The notes beneath the pieces were generated by a model. The model was given only the letters and a program-made list of their open reading frames with translations. It searched no databases and was not told the DNA's origin. This document shows positions 1 to 55,479 of a DNA stretch of 64,000 nucleotides, piece by piece (the stretch's first letter is position 1; every line of letters begins with the position of its first letter). The translations under genes were made by a program, and so were the position numbers. The DNA comes from Mobula birostris (lineage: Eukaryota): assembly GCF_030028105.1 (NCBI RefSeq), contig NC_092370.1, positions 171,254,647-171,318,646 on the forward strand, written 5' to 3'.

Positions 1-228
1 GAATCTGTGGAATTCTCTACCCAAAGAAGCGGTGGAGGCTACCTCAGTAAATATATTTAAGACAAGGTTAGATAGATCTTTGCATAATAGGGGAATTAAG
101 GGTTATGGGGAAAAGACAGGTAGGTGGAAACGAGTCCATGGTCAGATCAGCCATGATCTTATTGAATGGTGGAGCAGGCTCGACGGGCCAGATGGCCTAC
201 TCCTGCTACTATTTCTTATGTTCTTATG
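1..228 (+). mobile_element. CR1-type LINE 3' end
   Basis: RT C-terminal remnant (WNSLP..VEATSVNIFKTRLD) and a 3' UTR ending in (TTCTTATG)n; similar to 57259-57530 and the 45903 end. Confidence 0.8.
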
Positions 229-336
229 ACACAATTTAAAATTATGAATCATACCTGTCATCCAAAAAAAGCCAATATTCTATTCATGTTACCTACTGCA
301 TCTTGAACTTTTCTTTCCTGCAGTAGCTTTGATGAG

Positions 337-1338
337 GTAGTTTGTCAATGCCTTCTAAATGTCGAATGTTTACTTTATCTAAAGCACTTATTACTTCTCC
401 AAAGAACTTCAATAAAGTGGTCAAATATGATTTCTCTTTCTCAAAACCATCTTGACTTTACCTAATTATTTTGATTATTTTCTAAGTGCCCCATGCTACT
501 CTAATGCCTGTAATAGCTTTTGTTTGATACATATTAAAGAAAAATAGTCCGTGTTTTTCTACTTGCTGACTTTTTGAATAAAGGAGTTGTATTTGCAATA
601 TTCAAAACTATTGGAGATTTCTCCAAATGTGTGAAATTTTGGAAGATCATAATTTTCTTTGAGATTCAATGATAATGTTCATCAGGACTTAGGAACTTGA
701 CAACCTGTAGCTCTGTATGCTCAAAATACTCAGTATTGACTCTCTGATGATTACAATTTCCTGAGTTCTTCCTCTTAATTCCCAATTTATCATTATTTCT
801 GGAATGTGGTATCAACTAAAACTGAAATTACCTATTTAATTCATCTGTCATTTTACTATATTGTATTATTAAGTCCCTGGACACACTTTCTATGGCCTAA
901 AATTCACTTTATTAATACTTTTCTTTAAAAAAAATGCGCAAAAAAAACTTTTTATCTGCATTTTACATTTTTAGCAAACTTTATGTCACACTCTAGTTCT
1001 TCCTTTTTTCTTACTCTTTCACAGACTCTTTTTGCTGTTCAAGTTAAGTTTATTGTCATGTGCACAAGTGTGCTGAGGTACAGGTACAATGAAAAATTTG
1101 TTTACAGCAGCATTACATACAGGTTTAGACAACAAACAAGAGATAAATTATACATAAGTTAAACATAAATTATACAGCACGGTAAAAACAAAATAAAGAT
1201 TGTACAAACCAAGACATTATTGCAAAAATAAATCACAATCAGTGACAAGTCAAGTGAAATACAAGAGGTGGCCCAGAGTGTTCCATTGCTGAGGTATGAT
1301 TTGGGTTACGATGATTGATTCAAGAACCTGATGCTTAT
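337..1338. repeat. Copy 1 of an inverted ~1 kb duplication (partner 56754-58002); mosaic of an ancient CR1 remnant and a Rex/Babar-type tail
   Basis: Reverse complement aligns continuously with 56754-57258 plus 57531-58002. Confidence 0.9.
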
Positions 1339-1870
1339 AGTTAAGTTATTTGTGAACCCGGTGCTTTAACACCTCAGGCTTCTGTACCTCCAGCCTGACG
1401 ATAGCAACAAGAAGAGGGCATGATACAGATGCTGAAATCCATGATTATATCCTTGATTATACGTCAGAAATGCATTAACAGAATGTGGAATAAAGTTAGA
1501 ATACTTTCAACAATATATCTTTAAAAGCCAGTATTTGGTGACAAGCCAAATCTCCTTAAGCTTCTAACAAAGTCAAGGTGCTGGTGTACCTTCTTCATGA
1601 TTGCATCTATGTAATTAACCCAGGACAGGTCGTCCAAGATGCTCTTGCACAGGAATTTGTTTACTCTCTCCACCTCTGACCCACCAATGAGAACTGGCAT
1701 GTTGTCTCCCAACATTCCCTTTCTGAAGTCAATGATTAGCTTCGTCATTTTGTTGACACTGAATGCGTTTGTAATTGCAGCACAATTCAACTGGATGTTA
1801 TATCTCACTCCCGTACGCTGACTCATCACTGGTCGTGGTTCAGCCAACAACTGTGGTGTCATCAGTGAAT
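1339..1870 (-). mobile_element. Rex1/Babar-type LINE RT C-terminal fragment
   Basis: ORF 1521-1862: KMTKLIIDFRK...VERVNKFL..DDLSW..KKVHQHL..RSLRRFG. Confidence 0.7.
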
Positions 1871-2076
1871 TTCAAAGTTCAACAGTTCAAAGTTTAAAGT
1901 CAATTTATTATCAAAGTACGTATGTGTCACCATATACTACCCTGAGATTCTTCTTCTTGTGGGCATTCACAGTAGGTGCAATAGAATCAATGAAAAACTA
2001 CATACAAAGATGGACAAACAACCAATGTGCAAAGGCGAACTGTGAAAATACTAAAAAAAAGTAATAGTAATAAATA

Positions 2077-3659
2077 CAGTGCCTATAGGAAGTATTCAAC
2101 CCCTCCCTTTGGAAGTTTTCATGTTTTATTGTTTTACAACTTTGAATCACAGTGGATTTAATTTGGCTTTTTTGACACTGATGAACAGAAAAAGACCGTT
2201 TTGGGTCAAAGTGAAAACAGATCTCTAAAAAGTGATCTAAATTAATTACAAATATAAAACACAAAATAATTGATTGCCTCTCTTTAATATGACACACCAA
2301 ATCATCACTGGTGCAGCCAATTGGTTTTAGAAGTCACATAATTAGTTAAATGGAAATCATAGTGTGCAGTCAAGGTGTTGCAATTGATTGTAGTAACAAT
2401 ACACCTGTATCTGGAAGGTCCAACTGCTGGTGAGTCAATATCCTGACAAAAACTACACCATGAAGACAAAAGAATACTCCGAGCAACTCCGTGTAAAGGT
2501 TATTGAAAAGCGCAAGTCAGGAGATGGATACAAGAAAATTTCCAAGTCACAGAGTATCCCTTGGAGTACAGTTGTCAATCATCAGGAAATGGAAAGAATA
2601 AGGCACAGCTGAAAATCTGCCTAGAACAGGCCATCCTCAAAAACTAAGTGAGCATGCAAGAAGGGGACTAGAGAGGGAGGCCACCCAGAGATCTATGACA
2701 ACTCTGGAGGAGTTACAAGCTTCAGTGGCTGAGATGGGAGAGACTGCACATACAACAACTGTTGCCCGGGTGCTTCACCAGTCGCAGTTTTACGTGACAG
2801 TGGCAAAGAGAAAGTGAAAAAATCTCAAATGAAATCTCACCTAGAGTTTGTCAGAAGACACGTGGGAGACTCTGAAGTCACCTGAAAGAAGGTTCTATGG
2901 TCTGATGAAACCAAAATTGAGCTTTTTGGCCTTTAGACTGAACGCTGAGTTTGGCGTAAGCAAAACACCCCCATATCATCAAAAAGTATGGAGGTGGCTG
3001 CATCATGCTGTGGGGATGCTTCACTGCAGCAGGCCCTGGAAGGCTTGTGAAGGTAGATGGTAAAATGAATACAGCAAAATACAAGGAAATTCTGGAGGAA
3101 AACCTGATACAGTCTGCAACAGAACTGCGACTTGTTTCCCCAAGACAATGACCCTAAGCATAAAGCCAAAGCTACACAGGAATGGCTTAAAAACAACAAA
3201 GTTAATGTCCTGGAGTGGCCAAGTCAGAGTCCAGACGTCAATCCAATTGAGAAATTCGGGCTGGACTTGAAAAGGGCTGTTCACTCACGATCCCCATGCA
3301 ATTTGACAGAGTTTGGGCAGTTTTGTGAAGAAGAATGGGAAAAAGTTGCAGTGTCCAGATGTGCAAAGCTGATAGAGACCAATCCACACAGACTCAAAGC
3401 TGGAATTGCTGCCAAAAGAGCATCTACTAAGTACTGATCGAAGGTGGTGAATACTTATGCAATCAATTATTTTATGTCTTATATTTGTAATTAAGTTAGA
3501 TCACTTTGTAGAGATCTGTTTTCACTTTGACCTGAAAGAGTCTTTTTCTGTCGATCAGTGTCAAAAAAGCCAAATTAAATCTACTGTGATTCAATGTTAC
3601 AAAACAATAAAATATGAAAACTTCTGGGGGGGGGGGGTGAATACTTTTTATAGACACTG
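2077..3659 (+). mobile_element. Tc1 transposon, near full length, transposase pseudogene
   Basis: TA|CAGTG...CACTG|TA; ~200 bp TIRs (2077-2277 and 3458-3659); frameshifted transposase from ATG 2460 with WSDETK, QDNDPKH and WPSQSPDVNPIE. Confidence 0.95.
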
Positions 3660-3723
3660 TAAATGATATTGAGAACGTGAGTTGTAGAATCCTTGAGAGT
3701 GAGTCCATAGGTCGTAGAATCAC

Positions 3724-3864
3724 GCAAACACGAGAAAATCTGCAGATGCTAGAATTTCAAGCAACTCACACAAAATGCTGGTGGAACACAGCAGGCCAGG
3801 TAGCATCTATAGGAAGAAGTACAGTCGATGTTTCGGGCTGAGACCCTTTGTCAGGACTAACTGA
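3724..3864 (-). mobile_element. Short PLE-derived unit with decayed hammerhead (3822-3858)
   Basis: Minus strand agtcCTGACAAagggtctcagcccGAAAcATCgactg followed by the shared ~105 nt tail. Confidence 0.8.
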
Positions 3865-3870
3865 TTTCAG

Positions 3871-5359
3871 TTAGATGTAGTCATTCATGGTTTGGGTCTC
3901 AGGCAGGTAGAGGGAGATCAGATGCCATGGGGATTGGGTGGTATAGAGGTTGACCACACAGTTCTGTGGTCTGTGAGATGGTAGGGTGCTGGTTTCTCTT
4001 TTACTGAAGGCAATGGCTAAGTCGTGGTATTCCTGTGGGACTTCAATGAGGTCAGGGTTTTCCTTAGTCTCCCCAGATTTACAGGGTGAAATCAATTGAG
4101 GTTGCAGGCAGGTGGGTCCCCGCCTGGATGACCAGGCAAAGTGAGTGGAGAGCCAGAGGTAACCCAAGCTGAGAGATACGTTCAGTGAGTTGATCAGGAG
4201 AAATTGGATGGATTTGCGATGCTCTCCAATGATGATGTACATAGGCCATGTGTGTGGTGCTCTGACCATTCCAGATCCCAAGGGATGTTCGTCAATGGCC
4301 GTGATGCAGAATGGGTGCAAGACAGGCTACACACATGGAGTCCGGTCCAGAAAGTTGCTGGCTGCACCAGAATCCACTAGAGCCTCCTGTATGTATAGAG
4401 CCCTCGAGGTGTAGAGGAGGACAGAGATAGTGAGTCAGGCTTTGGTGCTAGAATGAGAGGCCAGGGGAAGCTTACCAGATAAGAGGCCCCTCGTCTCTTC
4501 CCGGTGGTGCCGTTTCTTGGATGTGCTGGACATTTGATGCATGGGCGGTCGGCTGCTCTGCAGTAGGCACACAAGTTGCTTTTCCACCAATGCTCATACT
4601 CTTGGTGGTTAACGAAGCTCTTCCTAAATGCATGTGTTCTGGAGGTGTTGCTGATGGGGGTCCTGCAGCCTGAAATGGTTCTGGGAATGGAACTGGGGAT
4701 CCAGCTGATGATCTGGAGGGTGGTTCCATAAGGCGCTTGTCTATTCGGTTGGGCCAGATTTATATGGCTTTTGAGGTCAGTGGGCATCTCCAAAGGTACA
4801 TAGCTCATCTTTCAAGCACTCCAAAAGGCTGTGACAGTAATGGGCCAGCAGCATTTCCGCACTCCACCTGCACCACACTGCAAGGATCCTGAATTCCACG
4901 GTGTATTTCAGCACTGAGTGTGTGCTTTGACACAGGCGAAGTATCTGGTCCACTGTTCCCCCTTCCACTTCCCGGATGGTCAAAAACGTAGTGCAGCTCA
5001 ACAGTGAATTCCTCATATGTGGTTTATTGGCCCAGGCCAGAGCTTGTCCAATCAAGAGAGAGATGACGAAGGCACTCTTGGCTCAGTTTGTAGCAGACAA
5101 CGATGGCTGGAGACTGAAGTGGAAGACATACTGAGACTGGGAGTTGCAGCATTGGGTTGGGGATCCATCAAAGCTTCTGGGCACTGGAATCTGTGCTCAG
5201 AGGGAGGTTCACTGTGCGGGGCTGGTGTGTTAAGATGGAGAGTTGGAAGAGAGTGGCGAGCAAATGGTCAGTGGTTTCGTGTAGATTGTGTGCTCATGTC
5301 GACAGGCAACCTCCTTCAGATGAGCAAACTCTGCTGGGTCAATGCAGGTTCACTCACCC
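3871..5359 (-). mobile_element. Ty3/Gypsy LTR retrotransposon internal remnant (gag, protease, start of RT), truncated
   Basis: Gag GQALAWA..LRLCQSTHSVLKYTVEFRILA; degenerate Zn knuckle CAYC..CP; protease ALVDSGAASNFLD (~4345-4383); VPQEYHDLAIAFSK..LPSHRP. Confidence 0.85.
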
Positions 5360-5696
5360 TGTCAGGGAACATAGAGGAGGCTTCACCCAAACGCACAGCA
5401 GTGGAGATGATTAAGCAATGAGTGATTACTTTAATAATAAACTGCAAAATTACAAGCCACGAGGGCCACAAAATTAAAGAGAAAAGATAATTAACCATGG
5501 CAAGGCAAGAAGATATCACCTGAAGGCTCGGAGCAACTGTTGAGGCTGGCTGGTTCGAATGAGTGAACAAGGGTTGTGGATGAGAGCTGAGTTTAAATAG
5601 ACTGCAGGTGACGAGGTGAAAACAAGTGGGCAAGTGGCTCCCATTAGCTGAGTGGTGACTGGGAGGAGCCTGCGTGTGCAGGCCTGGCAGTTGACA
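5360..5696 (-). mobile_element. 5' LTR of the Gypsy element
   Basis: TGTCA...TGACA termini, adjacent to gag; related copy at 63143. Confidence 0.75.
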
Positions 5697-5699
5697 CAC

Positions 5700-6100
5700 A
5701 GGGTAGACTTGTAATGAAGGGTAATAATTGTTCCTGAACCTGGTGGTGAAAGACCTTAGGCTCCTGTACTTGCTTTTTGATGGCATGAGAAGTGAACTTG
5801 GCTTAGATGGTGGATGCTGCTTTCTTGTGGCAGCGCTCCATGTAAATGTGCTCAATGAGGGGGGGTGGTTTTCCTGTGATGCACTGGGCTGTCGCCATTA
5901 CATTTTGTTGGCTTTTCTGTTCATGAGAATTGGTGTTTCCCTATCAGGCCACGATGCAACCAGTCAGGGTACTCTCCAGCTTCTGATGGCACTTACCTGC
6001 TTGTCCCAAAACAGATCCACTAAAATAACATCTAGGATTTTAAAGTTACCCACCTTCTCCACCTCTGATCCCTGGATGAGGACTGGCTCATGGACCAATT
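5700..6100 (-). mobile_element. Rex1/Babar LINE 3' fragment
   Basis: Same decayed motifs as other copies (ERCHKKAASII, RFRNNYYP). Confidence 0.6.
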
Positions 6101-6651
6101 ATCAGCTCTCTGGTTCAGCAGACTGTGACAGAGCCAGTCTACAACAAGTGAAATCTTCACCCCCCACTCTCCCAATAGCCCCGTAATTCTCATTATCCCT
6201 GTCTGGCTGCGCTGACGTTACGCTTATTGCGTGCACACGCCAGGCTTGGATGTTTTTGTTTGTACTTGCACACTCCAGGACAGTGGCATTGCTTGACGTG
6301 CCCTGTTTGTTGTGGCTACCAGAGTTTCAGGGAGGGGACCTGACTGATGACAGGTGTCTAAAAAAGATGCCTGTTTGTGGTGGCACCTGCTCTGAGCTGC
6401 CTCCGTGGAAGACTTCATTATGGGGGTGGAGAAGAGGGCTGGCTCCTGGAAAATAGTTAGTTATTGATTTATTTGTTGCACAATGTAATTTTATCTTATT
6501 GTGATGAATGTATTTGAGGAGATTTGTGATTGTGAAGAGAGATGTGAATTCCTGCCTTTTGGGTTTTGTATGATTATTCAGGCTCATGATAACTACTCCC
6601 CCACATTCCACGGAATGGACTATCCCTTTTCCCTTAAAGTAAGGAGATCCT

Positions 6652-8616
6652 CAAACACGAGGAAATCTGCAGATGCTGGAAATTCAAGCAACACACACAA
6701 AAAATGCTGGTGAGCACAGCAGGCCAGGCAGCATCTATAGGAAGAGGTGCAGTCGACGTTTCGGGCCGAGACCCTTCGTCAGGACTAACTGAAGGAAGAG
6801 ATTTGAAAGTGGGAGGGGGAGGGGGAGATGCAAAATGATAGGAGAAAACAGGAGGGGGAGGGATGGAGCCAAGAGCTGGACAGGTGATTGGCAAAAGGGA
6901 TACAAGGCTGGAAAAGGGAGAGGATCAATGGGACGGGAAGCCTAGGGAGAAAGAAAGGGGGAGGGGAGCCCAGAGGATGGAGAGCAGGCAAGGAGTTATA
7001 GTGAGAGGGAGAAAAAAGAGAGAGAGAGAGAGAATGAGAATGAATAAATAAATAAATAAGGGATGGGGTACGAAGGGGAGGTGGGAGTTTGAGATGTCAA
7101 TGTTCATGCCATCAGGTTGGAGGCTACCCAGACGGAATATAAGGTGTTGTTCCTCCAACCTGAGTGTGGCTTCATCTTGACAGTAGAGGAGGCCATGGAT
7201 AGACATGTCAGAATGGGAATGGGACGTGGAATTAAAATGTGTGGCCACTGGAAGATCCTGTTTTCTCTGGCAGACAGAGCATAGGTGTTCAGTGAAATGA
7301 TCTCCCAGTCTGCATTGGGTCTCGCCAGTACATAGAAGGCCACATCGGGAGCACCGGACGCAGTATATCACCCCAGCCAACCCACAGGTGAAATGTCGCC
7401 TCACCTGGAAGGACTGTCTGGGGCCCTGAATGGTGGTAAGGGAGGAAGTGTAAGGGCATGTATCGCACTTGTTTCGTTAGAAGGATAAGTGCCGGCAGGG
7501 AGATCGGTGGGAAGGGATGGGGGGGGGGGAGAAGAATGGACAAAGGAGTCGCGTAGGGAGCGATCCCTGCGGAAAGCAGAAAGAGGGGGGTAGGGAAAGA
7601 TGTGCTTTGTGGTGGGATCCCGTTGGAGGTGGCAGAAGTTACGGAGAATTATATGTTGGACCCGGAGGCTGGTGAGGTGATAGGTGAGGACAAGGGGAAC
7701 CATATTCCTAGTGGGGTGGCGGGAGGATGGAGTGAGAGCAGATGTACGTGAAATGGGAGAGATGCGTTTGAGAGCAGAGTTGATGGTGGAGGAAGGGAAG
7801 CCCCTTTCTTTAAAAAAGGAGGACATCTCCTCCAGCCTGGAATGAAAAGCCTCATCCTAAGAGCATATGCGGCGGAGACGGAGGAATTGCAAGAATGGGC
7901 TGGCATTTTTGCAAGAGACAGGGTGGGAAGAGGAATAGTCCAGGTAACTGTGAGAGTCCGTAGGCTTATAGTGGACATCAGTAGATAAGCTGTCTTCAGA
8001 GATAGAGACCGAAAGATCAAAAAAGGGGAGGGAAGTGTTAGAAATGGACCAGGTAAACTTGAGGGTAGGGTGAAAGTTGGAGGCAAAGTTAATGAAGTCA
8101 ACGAGCTCAGCATGTGTGCAGGAAGCAGCACCAATGCAGTCGTCGATGTAGCGAAGGAAAAGTGGGGGACAGATACCAGTATAGGCTTGGAACATGGATT
8201 GTTCCGCAAAGCCAACAAAAAGGAAGGCATAGCTGGGACCCATACAGGTGCACCTTTAGTTTGGAGGAAGTGGGAGGAGCCAAAGGAGAAATTATTAATT
8301 AATATTAAGGAGTAAGGACTAATTCCGCTAGATGGAGGAGAGTGGTGGTAGAGGGGAACTGGTTAGGTCTAGAATCCAAAAACAAGTGGAGAACTTTGAG
8401 ACCTTCCTGGTGGGGGATGGAGGTATATAGGGACTGGACATCCATCATGAAAATAAAGTGGTGGGGGCCAGGGAACTTAAAATCATTGAAAAAATTCAGA
8501 GCATGAGAAGTGTCATGAACATAGGTGGGAAGGGATTGAACGGGGGGGGGGATAAAACGGTGTCGAGGTATGCAGAAATGAGTTCGGTGGGGCAGGAGCA
8601 AGCTGAGACAATGGGT
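6652..8616 (-). mobile_element. Penelope-like element fragment (RT C-half, GIY-YIG endonuclease, 3' region with hammerhead)
   Basis: MDVQSLYTSIPH, MGPSYA.LFVG, RYIDD, HYKPTDSHSYLDYSSSHP; GIY-YIG VIYCVRCSRCGLLCTGET..RLGDHFTEH..EEQHLIFRLGSLQPDGMN. Confidence 0.92.
6750..6787 (-). ncRNA. Minimal type-I hammerhead ribozyme, intact core
   Basis: Minus strand uaguc-CUGACGA-a-ggg(ucucgg)ccc-GAAAC-GUC-gacug: stem I uaguc/gacug, stem II ggg/ccc, palindromic ACGU in place of stem III. Confidence 0.85.
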
Positions 8617-9360
8617 TCCAGGACAAAGGCGATGTCCTCCTTTTTTAAAGAAAGGGGCTTCCCTTCCTCCACCATCAACTCTGCTTTCAAACGCATCTCT
8701 CCCATTTCACGCACATCTGCTCTCACCCCATCCTCCAGCCACCCCACTAGGAATAGGGTTCCCCTGGTCCTCACCTACCACTCCACCAGCCTCCGGGTCC
8801 AACATATAATTCTCTGTAACTTCCGCCACCTCCAACGGGATCCCACCACCAAGCAGATCTTTCCCTCTCCCCTCTTTCCACAGGGATCGCTCCCTACGTG
8901 ACTCCCTTGTCCATTCGTCACCCCCCATCCCTTTCCTCCGATCTCCCTCCCGACACTTATCCTTGTAAGTGGAACAAGTGCTACACATGCCCTTACACTT
9001 CTTCCCTCACCACTATTCAGGGCCCCAGACAGTCCTTCCAGGTGAGGCAATACTTCACCCGTGAGTCGGCTGGGGTGATATACTGCGTCTGGTACTCCCG
9101 ATGTGGCCTTTTATATATTGGTGAGACCCGACGGAGGCTGGGAGACCATTTTGCTGAACACCCACGCTCTGTCTGCCAGAGAAAGCATGATCTCCCAGTA
9201 GTCACACATTTTAATTCCACATCCCATTCCCATTCTGATATCCACGGCCTCCTCTACTGTCAAGATGAAACCACACTCAGGTTGGAGGAACAACACCTTG
9301 TATTCCTCCTGGGTAGCCTCCAACCTGATAGCATGAACAGTGACTTCTCTAACTTCCATT

Positions 9361-10055
9361 TGTAAGGGGGTTTCGTCTTTTATGTTACTGCGTAGGCTAA
9401 TTAAAATAGCTTCTTTGTTATGTTATACTTGGGAATGCTTCTTTGTTATGTTAAACACTGAGAAAGTTCTTGCGCTAGCAGCTTGTTTTGAGTTAGAGTG
9501 TGATAAGAATATGTTACAAACCATTTGGGATAGTTGTTATGTTTTTGGTGTATTTGAAGATATTGTATGCGCGGGGTTTTGGGGCAGAAGGCGGGAGAGA
9601 GAGACAGAGGATGGACCAGGTGCTGTGATGTCTGCTAACGGGGTCGGACCCCGAGCAGAGCGTTCGGCGAGGAGACGGAGACGGACTCGTGTGGAGCGTC
9701 TGGTCGACCACCATTGTTGGTCCCAGGCGGCCGGTCGAGGTGGTCCGAGGGGTCGCAGGGTGAAGAAGAAGGGTCCTAAGCTCCAACTGCTTGTGCACGA
9801 AGAGATTGAACTTTGATAAGTGTGGCGCCTTTTATTTTCCTTTTATATTTTATTCCCTATTAATTATATAGTTCCAGTAATATCTATAAACTGTAAATCA
9901 TTTAATCGTATCTGGTGTATTGTCTGTTATTTGGGCGGGGTGGGGTACCTCACACAGCATCCACACAAACTGATTAGTCAGTTTGCCAGGGCCGAGGGCT
10001 GTTTCCCTAGGCAACAGCGAGCCGAGCGACCCTGAGGCTGGCCAGGGGGGCTACA
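9361..10055. mobile_element. Solo LTR (695 bp) inserted in the PLE
   Basis: TGTA...TACA termini; 4 bp TSD catt/cgtt (one CpG-type change); PLE sequence is contiguous across it. Confidence 0.8.
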
Positions 10056-10363
10056 CGTTAATACCCCATCTCCCCTTCGTACGCCATCCCTTATTTATTA
10101 TTTTCCCCTTTTCTCTCTCTCTCTTTTTTCTCCATCTGTCCCTCTCACTATAACTCCTTGCCTGCTCTTCATCCTCTGGGCTCCCCTCCCCCTTTCTTTC
10201 TCCCTAGGCCTTCCGTCCCATGATCATCTCCCTTTTCCAGCCTCGTATCCCTTTTGCCAATCAACTTTCCAGCTCTTAGCTCCATCCCTCCCCCTCCTGT
10301 CTTCTCCTATCATTTCGGAACTCCCCCTCCCCCTTCAAATCTCTTACTATCTCTTCTTTCATT

Positions 10364-10401
10364 TAGTCCTGATGAAGTGTCTCGGCCCGAAACATTGACT
10401 G
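10364..10401 (+). ncRNA. Hammerhead motif, core intact, stems II and III mutated
   Basis: tagtcCTGATGAagtgtctcggcccGAAAcATTgactg. Confidence 0.65.
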
Positions 10402-11109
10402 TATTTCTTCCTATAGATGCTGCCTGGCCTGCTGTGTTCACCAGCATTTTTTGTGTGTGTTCCTTAGCTGAAGCTTCATTTGGTGTAAGTGGTAAGGGAG
10501 AGAGGGTATGGTTAGGTGAGGTGTATTACTTCAGACTGATGTTTTGAAGCTGTAGTCCTGAAGGTCTGATGGGTCTCTATTATCTCTTTTATCTTTTTTT
10601 TGCATTGTAAATATTTGTGCACTTTTTCTAATTGTTTTAAGTCTCTGGCACACAATAAACTCCTTTGCACTGAATGCGCCCTTTATAAGGGCAAACAACC
10701 CTCACCAAAACCCAAGGTGTGACACGGACACCGAGTGAGAAGTTGTTATTGTGGCCCCATTCAAGCAGATTTTCAATCTCCTATCTGTGGATCTGTCACC
10801 ACCTTTGATTTGGCCAGCAACAAAAACAATCATTTGTAGGTGGTATGGGAACTGAGCTTAGCCACACAGTTAAAGACTCAGTTTAATAACCCATTCATGT
10901 GATATCACTTTTCTTTGGTGATAGAAGAAGTGCCAGACTTAAATTCTATGCTCAATTCTCTGGAGTTACCAGAAGATAAACTCTGAAATGCACTAGATGG
11001 TGGAGGCAGAAACTCCCACAACATCTTCATAAGATAAAAGTTGCTGGTGAACGCAGCTTGAATCTCCAGCATCTGCAGAATTCCTGTTGTTTGCATCTTC
11101 ATAAGATGT

Positions 11110-11680
11110 TCTGTTTTCTAAGGAAGATGAGATCCTTCAACGTGTGCAGCAGGATGTTGGAGATCTTTTACCAATCTGTTGTATTGAGTGCAAACTTCTT
11201 TGCAGTTTTATGTTGGGGGAGCAGCCAGTGCTGGTGATATAAAAAGGCTAAATTAATTCATCAAAAGGCTGAATCCGTCCTTTGCTACAACCTGGACTTC
11301 TTTGAGTTAGTGGTGGAGAGGAGGTCACCAAACAAACCATTATGGACAATCCTATCCATGACCTACTGAATAAGCAGCGAAGCACCTTTCAAACAGGCTC
11401 ATTCAGCTCTGTTGTCACAAGGATCGTTAGAGAAAGTCTTTCCTACCAATGCAATATTCATATTCAACAATTCATCTCTGCGCGACAGGAGAACACACAT
11501 AGTACAATAGTCTCTGCTTTATTATTTTGTACATTATTGCACATTAGTAAATTATTGTGTATATTATTATTATGTATTTTATTGTTAGTTAAGTCTGCAC
11601 ATTGCTAAGTGTGTTTTTAAATGTTGCTGCTGTAATGAAAGAATTTCCCACTCGGGATCAATAGAGTACTTATTATTATT
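11110..11680 (+). mobile_element. Rex/Babar-type LINE 3' fragment
   Basis: Decayed RT C-terminus and tail aatttcccactcgggatcaatagagta(tta)n. Confidence 0.55.
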
Positions 11681-11987
11681 AAGTACATCACCAAGGCATA
11701 GAAGGCTGCAGGCCAAGTGCTGTAAAATAGAATTAGTAAAGATAAGCAAGTTGTGGTTGAAATGAACATGCTGGGCCGAAGGGCGTGGAAGGGCTTGCTT
11801 CTGTGCTCTGTGGCTGTGGCAAAAAAAGACATTAAAATACATTCGGACAGGAGCACAGATGGGAAAGGTTTCAAGGGAGACTGCAAGTGCTGGAACCTGG
11901 AGCAACGAACAATATGCCGGAGAAACTATGCAGGTCGAGCAGCATCCATAGAGGGAAAGGAATTGTTAAAGTAGAGGGATGTGGGTC

Positions 11988-13207
11988 TGTCATAACGTGG
12001 GGTTCTGGGAGCGGACCCAAATGCAAGACACAGACACTGAAGTACTAGGAACAGGACTTAACTAGAGAGCTGGGACAAGAACACAGACTTGGGCTAGGAC
12101 ATTGGCTAGGCAAGCAGGACCAGGACAAGGAACTGGGAACTAGGAGCCTGGGCTTGGACTCCGAGTCGGAGACTGGACGAGGACCCAAAACCTGGGTCTT
12201 GACTCGGGCTCGGACTCCGGAACTAGACGAAGACATGACGTGGTCTTGGGAGACAGGACTAGGCGAGGCTACAGGACAGAACGAGAGACTCCTGGGCAGG
12301 ACGAGGGAACTCCAGTACAGGACGAAAGAACTCCAGCACAGGACGAAGCACATGGACAGGACGAGAACACAAAGCCTTGACTTGGTACTCAGGAACAGCT
12401 GAGCCTTGGACTCGGGATGACAGGAACACAGAACACAGAGCCTTGGTCTAGAGCACGGGCACACGGAGCCTTGGACTTGAGAGACAGGAACACATGGACA
12501 TGGAATACAGAGCTGGGACCCCTCCTTGGGAACAGGACTTAGGGCTGGGACTTGCACACGGAACACAGAGACAGGACCCTTCCTTGGGAACAGGACTTGG
12601 GGCTGGGGCTCTACAGAGAATGCTGAACACAACGAGACGGTTTCCAACACTAGGTAGCAGCAAACGGCCGGACCTCCCTAGCGCAGGCGTGGACAGAGAC
12701 GGTTCCAACTCAACGATAGACAGTTCCTTGACACAGAAAGGCTCCGGTCTCGCTCCGGTGGTAGAACTTGTTAAGGTTGCAGGCAAGGCTCCAGACATAG
12801 GTTACAGGCAAGGCTCCAGACACAGGTTACAGGCAAGGCTCCAGACACAGGTTACAGGCAAAGGCTTCAGAAGGAAGGGGAAGGGAAGGGAACAGTCCAG
12901 CCTCAGGGTAATGGCAAAGATGGCCTGGCTTACCCAACGGAGGCAAGGACAGGAAGGGACGGATCCACCCGCAGGGTAACGGCAAAGACAGCCTGACTTA
13001 CCCCACGGAGGCGAGGACGGGATACTGACAAGAGAACCAGCAACCACACTCAAACCCAGGGCCACCTATATTCCCAGCCCCAAGACGAGCATCAGGTGCC
13101 TATGATTAAGCCCAACTGAAACAAGGGACAGCCAGAACACCCGGCGTCCGCAGTCCACGGACTGGACCGTGAACTGGAATGCGGAGTTCACAGACCAGAC
13201 CATGACA
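11988..13207. mobile_element. Solo-LTR-like element (1220 bp) rich in internal repeats
   Basis: TGTCAT...ATGACA termini; start resembles the LTR at 5360 (tgtca...acccaaa.gca); TSD imperfect (gggtc/ggacc). Confidence 0.65.
12781..12866 (+). repeat. 25 bp tandem repeat, ~3.4 copies
   Basis: (aggcaaggctccagacaYaggttac)3 plus a partial copy. Confidence 0.9.
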
Positions 13208-13699
13208 GGACCAAAAGTGGTCAAGTGGGATCACCGTAGATAGGCATCTGGAGTTAAAGTAAAACAAGTCACATCTAAGTTTTGGTTGTAGACCCTTCAT
13301 CTGGAAGGGCAAATGCAGTATGTAGACCTGAAACGACGACTGTCCATTTCCTTCCATTGATGCTACCTGACCTGCTGAGTTCCTCCAGCATCTTGTCTTT
13401 TGTTTTGCTCCAGATTCCAATATTTGCAGTCTCATGCGTCTCCAGATGGTCAGCATGGAGGAGGGGGCCAGAGGAGCTTGTTTCTGCGCTGTACAACTCC
13501 ATGAGCTTAAAAGCTGCCTGTGCTACAGGTCAGTGTCTTCTGTTTCCTCCCACAATCCAAAGACGCAATTGGCCATTGTAAACTGTTCCGTGATTAGGCT
13601 ACGATTAAATCGGGGGTTGCTGGACAGCGAAGTGCTGTAACTATCAACAAATAAGTACATGCCTGGAACTAAAGTTCGCCACCTCGGCAAGATTCCGAC

Positions 13700-13807
13700 A
13701 TAGCTGACAGCAGGAAGTTGCTGTTCCGGGTGTGAGGAGGCGAGAGACTGACACTGAGCACCGATCGCAGCCTCCAAGCCCAGGCTGTAAGGAAGCAGAG
13801 TTAAAAG
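13700..13807 (+). promoter_or_regulatory. Candidate TMEM187 promoter/5' region at the start of a CpG island
   Basis: ETS-like CAGGAAGT (13711) and TTCCGG (13724); CpG-rich through ~14590. Confidence 0.35.
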
Positions 13808-14605
13808 ATGTGGACGCCGGCGCAGAGCGCCTTCCTGCACGTCCTGCTGCTCTTCGGCCTCTGCATCGCCGTCACCTGCAGCGGCGTCATGGACGGCGTG
13901 TGGACCGAGCTGGGTTACGAGCATTACGCCGAGCGGCCCTTGGCCTGGCTGCCGCGCTGTCTGGCCATGCCGGCCAACTCGCTGGTCAACCTGGGCTACG
14001 TGGCGCTGGGGGCTCACTGGCTGTGGCGGCAGGCGGCAGGCAGCGACAGCTACCACAAGGACGCGTTTGCCTGGATGGTGCTGGCCTACGGGCCGGTGCA
14101 GTGGGCCCGGATCGCTTCGCAGTCCCAGCGCCCGGCCGTGCTCGACCAGTGGCTCACGCTGCCCATCTTTGCCTGGGTGTTGGTGTGGGCGGCGTACCTG
14201 CTGGCGGGGCAGGAGGACGGGAAGAGCCGTCGCCACTCCAGCGCGCTGGCAGTGGAGGCGGCTTCGATCGCTAGCTACGGTCTGGCGCTGGTCCACCGCC
14301 GCGGCTTCGAGATCGCCCTTGGCTGTCATATCGCCACTGCCGTGCTGGCCGGGCTGGCGGCTCAGCGTCGCCTGGGCGACGCGGTTTCCCACCGGTACCT
14401 GCTGCTAGCTGTGGCTTCCTGCTTCGGCTTTGTGGGTCTGAAACTACTGGACCTGCCGCTGGCGGGCCTCGACCCGGGGCTAGGCCTCCTATCTGGGCCG
14501 TTGTCTGGACATTTCTGGTCCAAACTCTGCGATCTGTTGCAGATCCACTATAGCCTCTGTTTCCTACAGCACCTGGCGGGGCGGAAAATTCTGAAGCTCA
14601 AGTAG
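13808..14605 (+). CDS. TMEM187: Transmembrane protein 187 (265 aa, single coding exon)
   Basis: Recognised motifs GYEHYAE, LAMPANSLVNLGY, YGPVQW, AVLDQWLTLPIFAW, GFVGLKL, GHFWSKLCD; hydrophobic helices; intact ATG to TAG. Confidence 0.93.
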   Translation: MWTPAQSAFLHVLLLFGLCIAVTCSGVMDGVWTELGYEHYAERPLAWLPRCLAMPANSLVNLGYVALGAHWLWRQAAGSDSYHKDAFAWMVLAYGPVQWARIASQSQRPAVLDQWLTLPIFAWVLVWAAYLLAGQEDGKSRRHSSALAVEAASIASYGLALVHRRGFEIALGCHIATAVLAGLAAQRRLGDAVSHRYLLLAVASCFGFVGLKLLDLPLAGLDPGLGLLSGPLSGHFWSKLCDLLQIHYSLCFLQHLAGRKILKLK

Positions 14606-14880
14606 CAGTGTACCTTTTAATTACAAAACAAAACGGTTTTCATAAAAATATAAACAAAAATACAAATGGAATGGGTCCGTGTCTCTCTTTACCTTCCTTG
14701 TGCCATTAAATTGATGCATTCCATTAACAGTATTTCAGTGCTGCTGAAGGTGTATCTTTAAACCCATTAAGTCCTGTTGCAGGAATTTGAACTGAAACGT
14801 TGACATCCCCTACAGATACTGCTGGGCTGGACTGGCTGAGAGCCTCCTGCAGATTGTTATTATCCATCAAGTATTTCCTA

Positions 14881-15410
14881 CACTCAGTGGGTGCTTCATT
14901 AGGTACACATGTAAACCTGTTCGTATTTAATTTAATATTTAATCAGTCAATCAAGTGGCAGCAACTCAGTGCATGAAAGCATGCAAACATGGTCAAGAGG
15001 TTCATTTTTTGTTCAGACCAAACATCAGAATGGGGATGCAATGTGGTCGAAGTGACTATGACCCTGGAATGACTGTTGGTGTCAGACTGGGTGGTTTGAA
15101 TATCTCAGAATATCTGCAGATCTCCTGGGATTTTTTACACACAAAAAAATCTCTAGAGTTTACAAGAAATGGTGTGGAAACCCAAAAAACATACAGTGAG
15201 CAGCAATTCTGTGGGCCTTGTTAATGAGCGAGGTCAGAGGAGAATGGCCAGACACGTTCAAGCTGACAGGAAGGTGATAGTAGTTCAAATAACCACGTTA
15301 CAACAGGGGTGTGCAGAAGGGCATAGTTGAATGCACAACACATTGAAGTGGATGTGGTGGAGCAGCAGCAGACCATGAACATACACTCAGTGGTACACCC
15401 AGTACCTAAC
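14881..15410 (+). mobile_element. Non-autonomous Tc1-derived element
   Basis: TA then cactcagtgg..ttcattaggtacac start; decayed HTH-coding segment; related minus-strand fragment at ~32100-32285. Confidence 0.55.
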
Positions 15411-15889
15411 ATTATATATATTGAGCTAGCAGTTATCTCACAGAAGAGAAGTGACTCAATCATTTTCTCTCCTCTGTATCCTACTATCATGCTGACATAT
15501 TGACTGTGTCTTTAAGGGCTGGAGCCCTTAACAGTTTGCTGCACAGCAAATTTTCAGAAGCTGTAATCCATATTATGTGCTTTAGCAGGAAGCTATTTTA
15601 TTGTAGACTGCCCGAGTGGTGCACGCAACATCTTTTCTGACCTATTCCACAGTTTTGCAATGTCCTAAATCAGCATTACTACTAAATCAAACAATGGTTT
15701 AGTGCTTCAAAAAGACAGGTAGATCTCAGTGTCTAGGCTGTAACACCACAGGGTGGGGGCAGATATTGAAGATTGTACACTCAATTATCAAAAATTGTTG
15801 GTTAATGATCTAGCAGTGGTCAGTGAAAAAGATGAGTATTATACAGCTGAGTTAGCTTGAGTAATAATTGTGGTCCTAGCCAGCAAAAT

Positions 15890-17500
15890 CGACACACATT
15901 GTCAAGTTTGCTGATGACATTACAGTGGTGGGGCCCATCACCAACAATGATGAGATGGCCTACAGAGAGGAGGTAGAAGAACTTGAGGCCTGGTGCCTGG
16001 CAAATACCCTCTTCCTCAATATCAGCAAGACCATGGAGATGGTCATTGACTTCTAGACATCTCACATTACTCAGCCCCTCTTTACATTGGCGGCAGAACA
16101 GCGGGAACTGCAAGTAAAGAGAGGGCATGAGGTGGATCTGGCAGGCAAGGTTATTATAGCCATATTAAAAGGGTGGCTAGGGAGAGAGTATATCTCTTTA
16201 GATATCAGCAGGGCATAATGAGAAAAATCATGGTTGCTCAAGAGATAAGGGGAACGAGTGGAGATGTTTCAGAGAACATGCATAATACCAGGGTGGAGAG
16301 ATTTGCAGTCTAAAAGCACATTAGGGTCGATAACTCACCAGGGCCGGACCAAGGTAATCTCAGATTTTGTGAGGGCTAGAGAAGAAACTGTGGATGCCCA
16401 TGCGGATATATTTGCTCTCACCAAACCCATGGAAAGCATCTGGCCCAAACAGGGTAACTGTCCTCACTACTGAAAACCTGTGCTAATCAGCTGACTGGAG
16501 TGTTCACTGATATCTTTAACCTCTCTCTTCTGCAGTCTGTAGTACCCACTGCTTCAAGCAGACTTCAATGATATCAGTGTCTAAGAAGAATGTGGTAACC
16601 TGCCTCAATATCTATCATTCAGTCGCACTTACATCCACAGTGGTGAAGTGCTTTGAGATATTGGTGATGGAGCATATCATCTCCTGCTGGAAGACTGACT
16701 TGGTACTCTCACTCAATGTTAGCAAAACCAGAGAGCTGATTATTGACTACAGGAGGAGGAAACCAGTGTCCTCAGAGGTGGAGAGGGTCAACTATTTTAA
16801 ATTCCTCAGCCTCATCCTTTCAGAGGATCTGATCTGGGTCCAGCACATAAGTGACATTACAAAGAAAGCACAGCAACATCTCTATTTTCTTAGAAGTTTG
16901 TGAAGATTTGGCATGTCATCTAAAACGTTGACTGATTGCATCACGGCCTGGTATGGAAACACCAAAGCCATTGAATGGAAAAACCTAAAAGAAGTGGTGT
17001 ATACAGCCCAGTCCATCACAGGTAAAGCCCTCCCCACCATTGAGCACATCTGCAAGGAGCGCTGTTGCAGGAAAGTAGCATCCATCATCCAGCTATGCTC
17101 TCCTCTTGCTGCTGCCGTCAGGAAAGAATTGCAGGAGCCTTATGTCCCACACTGCCAGGTTCAGGAACAGTTATTTCTCCTCAACCATCTGGCTCTTGAA
17201 CCAGAGAGGATAACTTCACTCAACCCAACAGAGAACTGATTCCACAACTTATAAACTCACTTTCAAGGACTTAACAACTCATGTTCTCAATATTTATTGC
17301 TTATTTATTTACTATTATTATTTTTTTGTTCTCTTTCTCTTTGCAGTTTGTCTTTTGCACATTGGTTATTTGTCTTTGCTGTGTGCGTTTTCTTCATTGA
17401 TTCTATTGTGTTTTATTGCACTGTGAATGTCTGCTAGAAAACAAATCTCAGGGTAGTATATTGTGACAGATATATATACTTTGATAATGAATTTGAACTT
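15890..17500 (+). mobile_element. Rex1/Babar LINE fragments
   Basis: KFADD, VALTSTVVKCFE, SLNVSKTRELIIDYRR, CITAWYGN, ALPTIEHI; tail ending tttgaacttt. Confidence 0.75.
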
Positions 17501-20166
17501 TATCTTGTTGTTAGCTAGTGGTGAAGTTCCCAAAGGTTGTTCCATTGTTTAAATAGGCTAGCAAGAACACTCCAGAGAACCATATTGAAATACAGCACAG
17601 AATAGGCCCTTCCAGTCTGAGTTAATCCGAACCTAATCATGGGACAATTTACAAAGATCTATTAACCTACCAACAGGTAGGTCTTTGGACTGTGGGAGGA
17701 AAGTGGAACACCCAGAAGAAACACACGCTGTCACGGAGAGAGCGTACAAACTCATTACAGGCAGCGGCAGGATTGTTACCTTGTTCAGTTTAGTGCCATT
17801 GGTCAACGTAAAAATTCTACTTGACATTAGATCTAATGAGGTGACTCAAAGCAACTAATAGCATTAAGAATACACTGGGATGCTGCGAAGAAGACTGAAT
17901 ATCCTTTTTAAAGTTTGTATCATTGGAAGAACTGTCACATGAACAACAACAATGGAAGAAAACAATACCGCCTTCCCACTTGGGGGGCCAAACACAGGAC
18001 ATTGGGATGAAATAGGTGGGCATTGTGGTTGGAGTGGACTTTTTGGGCTGAAGGACCTGTATTTCTGCTGTGTTTCTCTATGATTCTAAACAATCCATGT
18101 AGGATTTAAGATGTACTACCCAATGTTCAATAGGACATTGATAAAACTTGTACAATCTTGAAAGATCACTATCTGAACCCTACTTTTCAGAAAAAAGTGG
18201 CATTTAGGTGTTTTCCCACTATGTACTATATGTCCAGAATTTCAGAAGTGTCACAACATTTAATGTGTCGCTGCACAGCTCTAAGAACCTGGATTTGAAC
18301 CTGGCCTCAGTTAACATCTGCATGAAATGTACATGTTCTTCCTTTGGCTAGGTGTATTCCACTTACCACCACCATGCCCCCAAGTTCCATCCCACCTCTC
18401 AAGTGATGCAGATTAATCAGCAACTGTAAATGATGCAAAGGGGAGTTGATGGGCACCAGAAATGGAGAGTATGGGGAAATAAAAAAATGGGTCTGACAGG
18501 TTCAAACTACCAGAAGTCACCACGGAACCAGTGAGTTGAATATTCTCCCGTGTCATAACAAGTAATTATAATGTCGTGAAGCAACACTGTCAATCCTTAT
18601 ATATGCAATGCCCATTAAAAATGTGACCAATATTATAGTGACAACCAAGAAATGTGTTACAATTGTAATATGTTTTGCAACAAGGAAGCACAGAATGTAA
18701 GAGTTTTAAAACATGAAGTACTCCCATTATCAACATGTATGTAGAATCTCTTTTCACATCAAAATGTATTAGCAGTTTAGGAAGTCACTCACAACCAATC
18801 ATTAGATAAGCTTACTGAATGCTGGCAGTTTGTTTTTAAGAGTCCCAATTACAATCTTCCTTTAATTGTTTCTCCTGCGATAAAGATGCCTTTTCAATTG
18901 CTTGGAAGTGGGGTACAAATTTCCATTTTTCATTCAACATTCACCACCAACAGTTCCACACCTTCCCTCCCCTCAACAAGGAAAAGCTTTTAATAAAAAA
19001 AATGCCTACTGACAACTGAATTATCCAATCAAAACAGGTGCATGTTTTAATTACACATATTCCATATGAAAACAATACAAGAAAATCCAATTTTCACATT
19101 AAAATAATTCTGGCAACATTAGTGAACTGAAGTCATTACTGGTACAATTCTGGTTATCTCTTATACAGTATATATAAATTTATTCATTCAACGTTATCAT
19201 TGCTTTTGTATGCACCATTACTTTGTCTCACTCACAAGCACCAAGTGACTAACACAAAGAACTCTGAGAGTCAGCCACTCCACTAATACTGCCTATTGAT
19301 CAATGCACCCTAGAAAATGAACACATGTTCAAAGGCTACATTAACTATAGTTGAGAACTCCAATTGAACAAAAAGGTTTGATTTGCTGTTAGTTTCAATT
19401 CACTTGAGAGGAAAAAAAATTGCTACACTAGGTAATTGACTTTCATGTTTATAGGTGTCCAAAAGCAAAATGGAAACATACAAAGGACCTTGACAGTGTA
19501 TGGGCTCAAGAAAGAAGAGCAAGCAGAAATAACCATAGTGCGGGTACCTGTTATCTGTCCAGCTATCTAGGCTGTAAACAACGTTGCCTAGATGTATATA
19601 TGGCCAAAACAAGATTCCAGAGGTAAATTCCACCCAGAGAGTATTTGTCCCCAAAATACTATCAAATGGACAGGGTAGGTGAGAGAGAGAGAAAAAAAGT
19701 ACAGGCAGGATTCGATAAACAAAGTTTGGAGTTGTATCAAATGATAATTAATTTTGGAATTATCACTTTAAACCTAACCTGTGTTACAATCTTTAGAAGC
19801 AAGGGAAGAAAAGTTCAATTGTGGTGAAATAAAACTAAATTTGTCACCATGAAGATAAAATGCAACAAACAACTACAATCAACAGCTTTCAAATCTTTGT
19901 GCAAAGGTGAATTTAATCTCTACAATACTGGATGATGTTGATGAAATACTTATTGACAGTACTGCTTTAACAGAACGCTTAATGAAGTACTTTTGAACAA
20001 AAAAAAATTCCAACAGTAATGTAATTAGTAGCTCAGAGTAAGAATTTCAGATGTTCTTGGATTGCACTCTGTACAGTTTTTTTTGCATGAAATATTGAAG
20101 AATTTCTTAGATTAGTAACACTTAAAGTTTATAAAAAGGATCTTCTTAAATCTGTAGCTCATTTCA

Positions 20167-20733
20167 TCATAAATGTAAATGCAAGAACTCTTGAATCTTT
20201 CGCCAGGAATCCTCTTGGGCGTAGCAGTGCTTTATTGGTTCTCCTCCTGACAGTACTGGATGCCCAAGGAAGCGGTCAATCACAGCAAAACAATATGGAG
20301 AACATGGAGGTTCAATATGATGCCCAGTTCCTGGGTAACTAAGAAGTTTGTAGTTATTCTTCCCATGTGTATTCAGTCTTTTTATCGCTTCTTCAGCAAA
20401 TAATTTGCTGTTCAATATCTTGTCATCTTCTCCTACCACAAACAGGATGTGTCCTTCAGCTTTTTCTAATGGGATGATGCTCTTTTGATTTTCATTGGGG
20501 TCACTAAGTGTACCAGACAGATCTAGAACTCCTGAGTCCAAACGAATGATTTCATCTAAATTGTGAGTCACACAGGGGAGATACACATCTTTGTAATACA
20601 GATCAGTTAAGGTGTTTGCATTGCAGCCAGAGATACAAACAGACGCCGTCACTTTTGGTATAAACGTGATCATTGATAGAGCCAAATCCGCACCTTTTGA
20701 AGAACCTATTACTCCAATACCAGGGCCTTTCAC
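20167..20733 (-). CDS. Acyl-CoA thioesterase gene A, exon 3 (catalytic domain)
   Basis: Acceptor tttgtag|GTG; GSSKG nucleophile, GEDD, GTGHHIEPP; ends FLHLHL then TGA TGA. Confidence 0.93.
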   Translation of the reverse strand: MKGPGIGVIGSSKGADLALSMITFIPKVTASVCISGCNANTLTDLYYKDVYLPCVTHNLDEIIRLDSGVLDLSGTLSDPNENQKSIIPLEKAEGHILFVVGEDDKILNSKLFAEEAIKRLNTHGKNNYKLLSYPGTGHHIEPPCSPYCFAVIDRFLGHPVLSGGEPIKHCYAQEDSWRKIQEFLHLHL

Positions 20734-30359: not shown

Positions 30360-31040
30360 ATCCTGTGATTTTGCTCTCTGAGACCGACGTGAAAGCATTA
30401 ATCATGAGGGTGAACCCACAGAAAGCATCGGCCCAGACGGGGTACCCGGTCAAGTACTAAAGACATGCTGATCAGCTGGCTGGAGTGTTCACTGCTATCT
30501 TTAACTTCTCACTTCGGCTGTCTGAGGTACCCACCTGCTTCAAGCAGGCTTTAATTATACCAGTGCCTAAGAAAAATGTGGGTAATCTGCCTCAATGACT
30601 ATCATCCAGGAGTACTTATATCCACTGTGATGAAGTGCTCTGAGAAGTTGATATCAATTCCTGCCTGAGAAGTGACTTAGATCTGGTTCATTTTGTCTAC
30701 TATCACAACAGGGCAACAGTAGATGCCATTTCATTGCCTGATCACTCAATCCTTGAACATCTGAAGAGTGTAAATGCATACATCAGGATGCTGTTCATTG
30801 ACAACAGCTCAGCATTCAATACTACCATCCGCTCAAAACTAATCAATAAGCCCCAAGACCTGGGTCTCAATACCTGTGTATCTGGATCCTCAATTGCAGA
30901 CCCCAATCAGTTCAGATTGGCAACATCATCCCCACAATCTCCCTCAGCATAGGTGCAGCATAAGGCTGTGAACTTGAACAGAAAAGCCTACAAAGGTAGT
31001 GGCTACAGCCCAGTCTATCACAGGGAAAGCCTTCCCCACT
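30360..31040 (+). mobile_element. Rex1/Babar LINE RT fragments
   Basis: YIRMLFIDNSSAFNT; GAPQG-like; ends TAQSITGKAFPT next to the exon 1 donor. Confidence 0.7.
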
Positions 31041-31048
31041 TTGCTTAC

Positions 31049-31613
31049 CTGGAGGCAGAAACAAGCTGCCTCTTACCCTGCCTTCCCTTAACCTAATCCA
31101 GCGGACTCCGGGTTTGCTGTACCACCTATCGACAGCCTGCTTGGCCAGGATCTGTCCAGGGATCATTCCGGCCTGCGTGTGGCCCGAGTGCAAGGACAGG
31201 TCGACTCGCAGGGGCCTGCCGGTCAGATTGGTGCAGGGCCTCAACTTCTGGTAGGGCGTCTCCATACTAGCGGGAGAAAGGGTCCACAAGAGCCCCATGG
31301 GCACCACGCCCAGGTAGTCGCCGCCCAAAGAGGGGGAGCGGCCGACGTCAAGTAGCCCGCGGTCGTCGGCGCGGAACTGGGCGCTGGAGTCGAACATTTG
31401 CTCGTTCTCGGTGAGCACCAGGGCTCGCAGCGTGACCTTCTGGTGCGGCGACAGCCCCGCCGCACGGATGCACACGGGCTCGTCCGCCAGGCTCGGCTGC
31501 GGCGTAACCGAGAGCGTGGCTGCACCGCGCTTCCCTCGGCCGCAGCTCTTGCCCGGGCGCCGCCAAGGTCCGTAGCGAGCCCGCCACAGCCCGAAAGCCG
31601 TCCGCCCCAGCAT
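31049..31613 (-). CDS. Acyl-CoA thioesterase gene A, exon 1, with Arg-rich presequence (ACOT2-like)
   Basis: ATG 31613; AATLSVTPQPSLADEPV..GVVPMGLLW..REGRVRGSLFLPPG; donor CCA G|gtaag; CpG island; spliced CDS 1335 nt = 444 aa. Confidence 0.92.
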
Positions 31614-40586: not shown

Positions 40587-40688
40587 CTTAAAACAGTAAT
40601 TTAAGCATGTTAACAGCATCAACTTTATTATCTATACTTCTAGTAAATTATGCTAGAACAACCTTTGGGTGGAACCACTTGTACCATA

Positions 40689-49890: not shown

Positions 49891-50351
49891 ACCAGGTTCT
49901 TTATGTTTGAAAAACATTGCCTTTATGGTGCTCTTGAGAACTTTAGCACTGATCACCTTATTGCAATGCTTTGCTGATGTTAAGACTTGGGGGCAAGGTT
50001 GAATACAGGTGGATTATGCAGTGATCAGTTTAGCAGTCATCAGTGCCGTTGCAATTTGGCTGATGTAAATGTCTTTGCAACCCCTCGTCCAGACAATGAC
50101 ACAATCTAATAGATGCCAACGCTTGGACAAAGGGGAGGGGTTGCATATTATCTTCGTGCACCAGGAATTGTACAAGGAGGGCTTAGAGGGTTAAGATGGA
50201 TTCAGAGCTAAGGAGCCTGCATCTGTGTTGTATTGCTTCATGACTCTATGTTCTTGATTTAATATGTCACAACCAAGCTCCAAGCCCTTTTTATCCCCCA
50301 AAAGGAAAACTCTGTTGGGGTTAGTCACCCTTAAAACCTACTTGCGAATTT

Positions 50352-50895: not shown

Positions 50896-50899
50896 TGTG

Positions 50900-55370: not shown

Positions 55371-55479
55371 CTGAAATCTACTGATTGCTTGGTTTCAATG
55401 GTCCATTTGAAACTAAAAGCTCATAAAAAGTTTTATTTACATTGTATAAGCATGTACTTTGAAACATGAAGTACATTTT

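Follow-up and report, generated by a model that had tools for sequence, protein, structure and literature searches.

A complete minimal hammerhead motif in the terminal repeat (3' pseudo-LTR) of a decayed, likely Neptune-type Penelope-like element of Mobula birostris

The window (the whole stretch of 64,000 nucleotides of Mobula birostris DNA analysed here) carries on its minus strand, at 6787-6750, a complete minimal type-I hammerhead motif (min-HHR), with a predicted cut at 6755|6754. We consider it very probable that this intact motif was inherited in the 3' pseudo-LTR (pLTR) of a broken, 5'-truncated Penelope-like element (PLE), likely of the Neptune clade, and that it is likely an inert relic at this locus. 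The features of the motif, of the element and of the neighbourhood are collected in Table 1.

Table 1. Positions of the hammerhead parts, the host element and neighbouring features in the window
Feature	Position	Strand	Remarks
Stem I	6787-6783 with 6754-6750	-	5 bp: 4 Watson-Crick and one U-G
Core CUGACGA	6782-6776	-	fits CUGANGA
Extra A between 9 and 10.1	6775	-
Stem II	6774-6771 with 6766-6763	-	4 bp: three G-C and a closing U-G; loop CUCG
G12-A13-A14	6762-6760	-	GAAA is 6762-6759
Palindrome ACGU (A15.1-C15.2-G16.2-U16.1)	6759-6756	-	reduced helix III; no loop 3
C17	6755	-	cleavage triplet GUC is 6757-6755
Tail	6652..6754	-	103 nt past the predicted cut; family insertion end at 6652/6653
3' untranslated part of the pLTR, pyrimidine-rich, from ORF end to hammerhead	6788..7086	-	differs between two subfamilies of the window
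Left arm: frameshifted, stop-containing, 5'-truncated PLE ORF	7087..8618	-	RT core, CX4CxxC linker, GIY-YIG endonuclease
Right arm, ORF part: inverted, 5'-truncated second copy, head-to-head	8616..9360	+	TTCCA microhomology at the join
Likely solo LTR, later insertion, 695 bp	9361..10055	.	TG...CA ends; 4-bp flanking repeat with one mismatch
Right arm, pLTR part	10065..10465	+	stops about 34-37 nt before the left arm's end (optional tail)
Sister hammerhead, mutated	10364..10401	+	mismatch in stem II; changed palindrome and cleavage triplet
Nearest same-strand solo pLTR fragment	3725..3864	-	2.9 kb downstream; G8 and G16.2 both changed to A
TMEM187 ORF, nearest host ORF	13805-14602	+
BAAT/acyl-CoA thioesterase (ACOT)-like exons, tandem cluster	20170-20733, 30915-31649, 39996-40631, 58342-58980	-

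The hammerhead motif and its host element

The complete core, the two stems and the ACGU in place of stem III, which the initial annotation had read on the minus strand, were confirmed base for base. The 3-bp stem II with a 6-nt loop given there is equal to the 4-bp stem with loop CUCG used here, and the G10.1-C11.1 pair is present (G6774-C6763). When both strands of the 64 kb window were scanned with a relaxed type-I descriptor, 6750-6787 was the sole match. The loose descriptor gave a mean of 0.115 matches per dinucleotide shuffle (n=200), and none of the 200 shuffles contained a match of equal quality, defined as a stem I of at least 5 bp, a stem II of at least 4 bp and a minimal stem III. 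Of the two kinds of scan that had been proposed for this motif, the descriptor search recovered it, whereas the covariance models of Rfam, run at E<=10 over 1-20000 and 6640-6860, returned no hammerhead family, only sub-threshold noise; 6750-6787 lies outside the canonical type-I class of the Rfam models, with its loop-bearing helix III. Stems I and II were also recovered in the RNAalifold consensus of eight window copies. In that alignment two-sided changes were seen at none of the 18 predicted pairs, and a one-sided U-G/C-G change in stem I, present in four of the eight copies, alternates between the subfamilies.

The motif lies on the ORF strand (sense), about 300 nt past the end of an ORF for reverse transcriptase (RT) and a GIY-YIG endonuclease (EN), and is contiguous with it, which bears out its earlier placement in the 3' pLTR of a PLE. 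The element consists of two arms, 6652-8618 (minus) and 8616-10465 (plus), that are about 90-91% identical over aligned columns, and the likely solo LTR splits the right arm just past the ORF end. No target-site duplication is evident at the outer ends of the element. There is no tandem direct repeat at the site, and the 64 kb window holds one intact motif. In the tail downstream of the cut, at 6652-6736 (minus), there is an open frame of about 28 codons that begins with ATG, and a hairpin is predicted there too.

The left-arm ORF matches the relative P0001 at 84-88% and the ORF of the metagenome locus L002 at 40-42%. Pfam gave no relevant family on five ORF fragments of the element; on P0001 and another relative, P0003, the GIY-YIG matches were weak and below curated cut-offs. 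The right arm, P0001, P0002, P0004 and P0006 carry the linker as CX4CxxC, and P0003 and P0005 as CX3CxxC. Among the longer proteins, all ten homologues of the element's protein (10/10) come from Mobula hypostoma or Hypanus sabinus, at 66-97% identity, which points to a myliobatiform ray as host. Since a CX2-5CxxC linker between RT and EN marks Neptune and Nematis (Craig et al. 2021, PMC8557442), and only Neptune and Poseidon are reported in vertebrates in the preprint by Li, Clavereau and Pollet (2026, 10.64898/2026.07.22.740005), the element is likely a member of the Neptune clade, an assignment that follows the linker motif and not a tree. With the Neptune EN+ PLEs described by Craig et al. 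it shares the RT followed by a C-terminal GIY-YIG, the linker, the 5' truncation, the inverted truncated copy and the tail at one end; inverted 5'-truncated copies and an optional 30-40 bp tail are typical of PLE insertions (PMC8557442). Unlike those elements, the copy here has a broken ORF and lacks an upstream direct pLTR.

That PLE terminal repeats carry minimal type-I hammerheads with a palindromic stem III, as had been stated when the motif was first noticed, matches the work of Cervera and De la Pena (2014, PMC4209133), according to which the pLTRs of metazoan PLEs harbour min-HHRs, most of them solo, that are inactive as monomers and cleave weakly as dimers. Every sequence feature of the metazoan consensus published there is found in 6750-6787: type I, the extra nucleotide, G10.1-C11.1, the palindrome 15.1-16.1, NUH and a short helix I. 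The U-rich 5' flank, the mostly solo occurrence in truncated PLEs and the opposite-strand pairs are shared as well. The Neptune motif of Acropora digitifera (PMC4209133) agrees with ours in the core letters, in the 4 bp of helix II and in C-G-U-C. In the schistosome families of that paper helix II has 7-8 bp, as against 4 bp here, and the letters of stem I and loop II in our copy are family-specific when set beside its motifs. Cartilaginous fish are absent from its species list (Fig. S3, Table S1), and we found no description of an elasmobranch PLE hammerhead among the papers listed by our searches; the supplements to PMC4209133 and to the 2026 preprint may cover the lineage.

Related motifs in the window and in metagenomes

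A profile built from 10 window copies gave 20 matches at E<=0.5, and the 15 that span the motif were inspected. All but one (14/15) are mutated in the core, the stems or the palindrome, many at CpG; only 6750-6787 is intact (1/15). Judged by its sequence, the copy at 3725-3864 is not a competent partner, and there is none on the same strand at the locus. This fragment was also considered as the other end of a full PLE unit, for which the 2.9-kb spacing fits, but no PLE ORF lies between it and 6750. The N-terminal part of the L002 ORF has no match in the window.

A second PLE subfamily (45122-45446, 50306-50905 and 55068-55400) shares the hammerhead and tail with the first and has an unrelated 3' region upstream of them; its ORF, at 53706-55019, is about 66% identical in DNA, and 50359-50549 and 50663-50862 form another inverted pair. 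Short pLTR fragments at 3725-3875 (minus), 58085-58232 (plus), 59128-59285 and 13274-13439 start within about 20 nt of the 5' part of the hammerhead, none of them exactly at the cut, which may reflect stalling of the reverse transcriptase at the structured motif. Small inversions are seen at some fragment joins, as in the 8-bp inverted repeat at 3864-3875 and the back-to-back pair at about 13300-13320.

The same core was searched for in metagenomes with a pattern made of the core and the base of stem II, stem I being left out of the pattern. It was found in at least 121 metagenome loci (at least 130 matches), and a scan of viral contigs gave 0 matches. Among the matches listed, stem I pairs over at least 3 bp in 57 of 90 distinct contexts, compared with 6% of random flanks, and a PLE ORF match is present in 23 of the 121 loci. 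Stem I shows A-U/U-A and G-C/C-G swaps in these loci, the related copies among them not being independent of one another. In L002 a long Neptune-like ORF with the same linker (1005-3663) lies between inverted hammerhead-bearing repeats, one hammerhead being 139 nt past the aligned ORF end and the inverted one upstream. Back-to-back pairs of hammerheads on opposite strands occur in several loci among L002, L007, L019, L042, L050 and L114, and the families of these six loci diverge only some tens of bases beyond the cut.

These data also bear on whether 6750-6787 could be a chance match, or belong to a tandem non-LTR retrozyme instead of a PLE terminal repeat, which we regard as extremely unlikely. 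The lack of an Rfam hammerhead match here would fit such an origin, as would the hammerhead retrozymes reported in one chondrichthyan genome (10.64898/2026.07.22.740005). However, the shuffles and the contiguity with the PLE ORF refute it, the same core with a covarying stem I recurs in unrelated families, and the site is free of tandem direct repeats. Animal retrozymes, like the element here, carry a type-I hammerhead that is derived from or shared with PLE pLTRs (PMC7229834, 10.64898/2026.07.22.740005), but they are tandem arrays with a complete hammerhead in each unit, whereas our copy has no neighbour of its kind on its strand and adjoins the remains of an ORF.

Insertion ends, predicted folds and a proposed mechanism

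The family was followed in contigs (not reads) of four sequencing runs, aligned to 6580-6960 with records at least 80% alike kept. X19 and X20 are probable DNA runs, with 47,522 and 34,329 contigs aligned; X1 and X5 are RNA by guess and gave 5,581 and 5,023, which, being contigs of runs so classed, cannot show strand, ends or expression. Loose ends accumulate at 6652 and 6653, with 968 and 464 contigs in X19, 526 and 274 in X20, 118 and 55 in X1, and 116 and 47 in X5. None of the best 24 of 1,119 loose-end rows is at 6754/6755. Thus the cut site does not delimit the inserted copies, and the initial annotation's proposal that the hammerhead marks the processing site of the family's RNA fails for them: their junction is uncut and their end lies 103 nt further on. 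Cleavage of some transcripts from an active master copy is possible.

Two other groups of loose ends were set aside. Those at 6786, seen in all four runs (79, 54, 478 and 460 contigs), were considered as signs that copies are truncated where the ribozyme begins. Their consensus, however, opens with purine-rich sequence that lies upstream in the second subfamily, so that a boundary between subfamilies accounts for them at least in part. Those at 6750, seen in three of the four runs, resemble the tail of the second subfamily and were read as alignment breaks, not as real ends.

The substitution rows listed are all but 23 of the total. Among those for X19 and X20, no position of 6750-6787 has a majority unlike our copy; the motif changes listed are minorities at the CpG positions 6762, 6763, 6770 and 6778, at 6-18% of depth. 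At 6714, 6749, 6794, 6830, 6847 and 6913, in contrast, 98-99% differ from our copy in these two runs. The motif is thus shared by the family, and what has decayed in our copy is the sequence on either side of it. The expectation that the family consensus would retain the core, GAAA, GUC and the stems held for X19 and X20, whose majority inside the motif equals our copy in the rows listed. At 6763, however, a change of C11.1 to U reaches 66% and 60% of depth in X1 and X5, compared with 7-13% in X19 and X20, so that not every run's majority equals our copy; different organisms and the weighting by contig depth may explain this contrast.

The predicted energies favour inactive folds. With ViennaRNA the monomer is predicted to form a rod of -12.9 kcal/mol, the active double hammerhead reaches -16.7 kcal/mol and an inactive dimer -34.1 kcal/mol. 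In the predicted rod G5-A6-C7-G8 is paired with C15.2-G16.2-U16.1-C17, and the identical lock is the predicted monomer fold of 35 of 38 natural motifs, namely those with a stem I of at least 3 bp (30 of 68 distinct motifs were excluded for a shorter stem I). The gap between inactive and active dimer, 17.4 kcal/mol for 6750-6787, is near the top of the range (median, 12.7), although a gap of 17 kcal/mol may be overstated, because nearest-neighbour energies omit Mg2+-stabilised or tertiary contacts and treat three-way junctions crudely.

A comparable case is the hammerhead of the anole Poseidon element (PAc, Anolis carolinensis), whose cleavage required the addition of the PAc protein (Frangieh et al. 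2024, PMC11167929). In that study core mutants were without effect on insertion in vitro, no RNA-seq ends were reported at the cut, and reverse transcription starts at internal sites that match the genomic tail. As in PAc, the hammerhead here is inside the pLTR, the insertions end at a fixed distance past the cut and there is an optional 30-40 nt tail. The distances differ, with PAc starting reverse transcription at ORF +111-118 and having its cut at +26, and the family here ending at +103 from the cut. PAc, a member of the Penelope/Poseidon clade, has an ORF that begins within stem II (PMC11167929), whereas the copies here are without a complete 5' end; PAc was assayed in vitro, whereas 6750-6787 is known from its sequence and predicted folds.

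Could the motif nevertheless be a dimer ribozyme that works efficiently as RNA alone and sets the ends of the family's transposition RNA, this copy cleaving when it meets a second one in trans, supplied by the very numerous transcripts of the family? No catalytic position is altered and the palindrome is whole, PLE min-HHRs have been reported to cleave as dimers, though at a low level (PMC4209133), and the family is abundant in X1 and X5, the runs guessed to be RNA. Such a ribozyme is nonetheless quite unlikely in view of insertions that end well beyond the cut, of loose-end rows (the best 24) without 6754/6755, of inactive folds predicted to be far more stable and of a locus that lacks a competent partner in cis. 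The anole element, uncut without protein, without RNA ends at the cut and indifferent to core mutations for insertion, argues in the same direction (PMC11167929).

The scheme that we propose for the family starts from an active tandem master (pLTR-ORF-pLTR), in which two motifs would pair through ACGU into a double hammerhead and each core would cut the other copy after GUC. Cutting is likely weak and dependent on protein help, because of the predicted pairing of the core in the stable rod. The template of a new insertion would be RNA that is uncut (or religated), on which reverse transcription begins at an internal site, about +103 or +69 nt from the cut; this would explain why the whole motif is kept in genomic copies. 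The copy at 6750-6787 would then likely have stayed intact by chance. A further step, which we offer tentatively and think on balance unlikely, would be that the PLE min-HHR is by default a self-locked rod, with G5-A6-Y7-G8 paired over the cleavage triplet, and serves as a protein-gated switch and landmark rather than a free dimer ribozyme. In this model it would be kept shut so that RT starting some 70-100 nt downstream copies through it, and binding of the PLE protein would be needed to open it.

Retention of the motif at this locus and its significance

Our copy keeps all 38 bases of the motif and all five of its CpGs. The divergence between the arms corresponds to 3.9% per lineage at non-CpG positions, and 12 of 35 CpG sites are retained in both arms. 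From this divergence the chance that a given copy stays intact is about 1-4%, a value that uses a CpG loss rate of 0.49 taken from the 35 sites and biased upward, and the chance of at least one intact copy among the 15 inspected is roughly 15-40%. Intactness is thus compatible with neutral decay and is not proof of neutrality: 1-4% is low enough that protection could be involved, or the copy could be younger than the arm comparison implies.

Protection would be expected of a regulatory self-cleaving element kept by the host, for instance one that cuts a minus-strand read-through or antisense transcript near TMEM187. The complete retention of bases and CpGs in spite of a sister divergence of about 9-10%, with its low chance per copy, speaks for such a use, which we nevertheless judge very unlikely. 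The copy was chosen for being intact among the 15. TMEM187 has the opposite, plus-strand orientation, and one has to go 13 kb upstream, to 20170-20733, to reach the closest host exon found on the minus strand, a BAAT/ACOT-like one. Moreover, a minus-strand read-through includes the antisense of the sister arm, computed to pair with the motif at -61 kcal/mol, and would therefore sequester it. A relic retained by chance remains the reading that we prefer.

Other repeats lie in the same neighbourhood. A remnant of a Tc1-like DNA transposon (2075-3661) has inverted ends of about 200 bp (88% alike) and a DDE match; a second Tc1-like transposase fragment is found at 40997-41551, and a LINE-type RT fragment at 46711-47364. 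Two inverted repeats of about 500 bp each, 92-95% identical and 56 kb apart, are present at 325-1341 and 56751-58017, the latter being interrupted by another repeat.

The class of motif described here is already known, and our copy is at most a new lineage example. Fish, amphibian and invertebrate genomes hold thousands of such motifs, so that a single copy is of little consequence. The in vivo role of PLE hammerheads is unsettled (Craig et al. 2021, PMC8557442; review PMC7761336). A natural copy left intact, from an elasmobranch family that is likely of the Neptune clade, can serve as a test substrate, and the insertion ends of this family provide a second case, beside the anole Poseidon, in which the cut site does not delimit the inserted sequence. 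With an abundant ray family, a sharp end at +103 and copies broken or inverted at the motif, the suggestion that the hammerhead may act as a locked switch becomes testable for a Neptune-type element.
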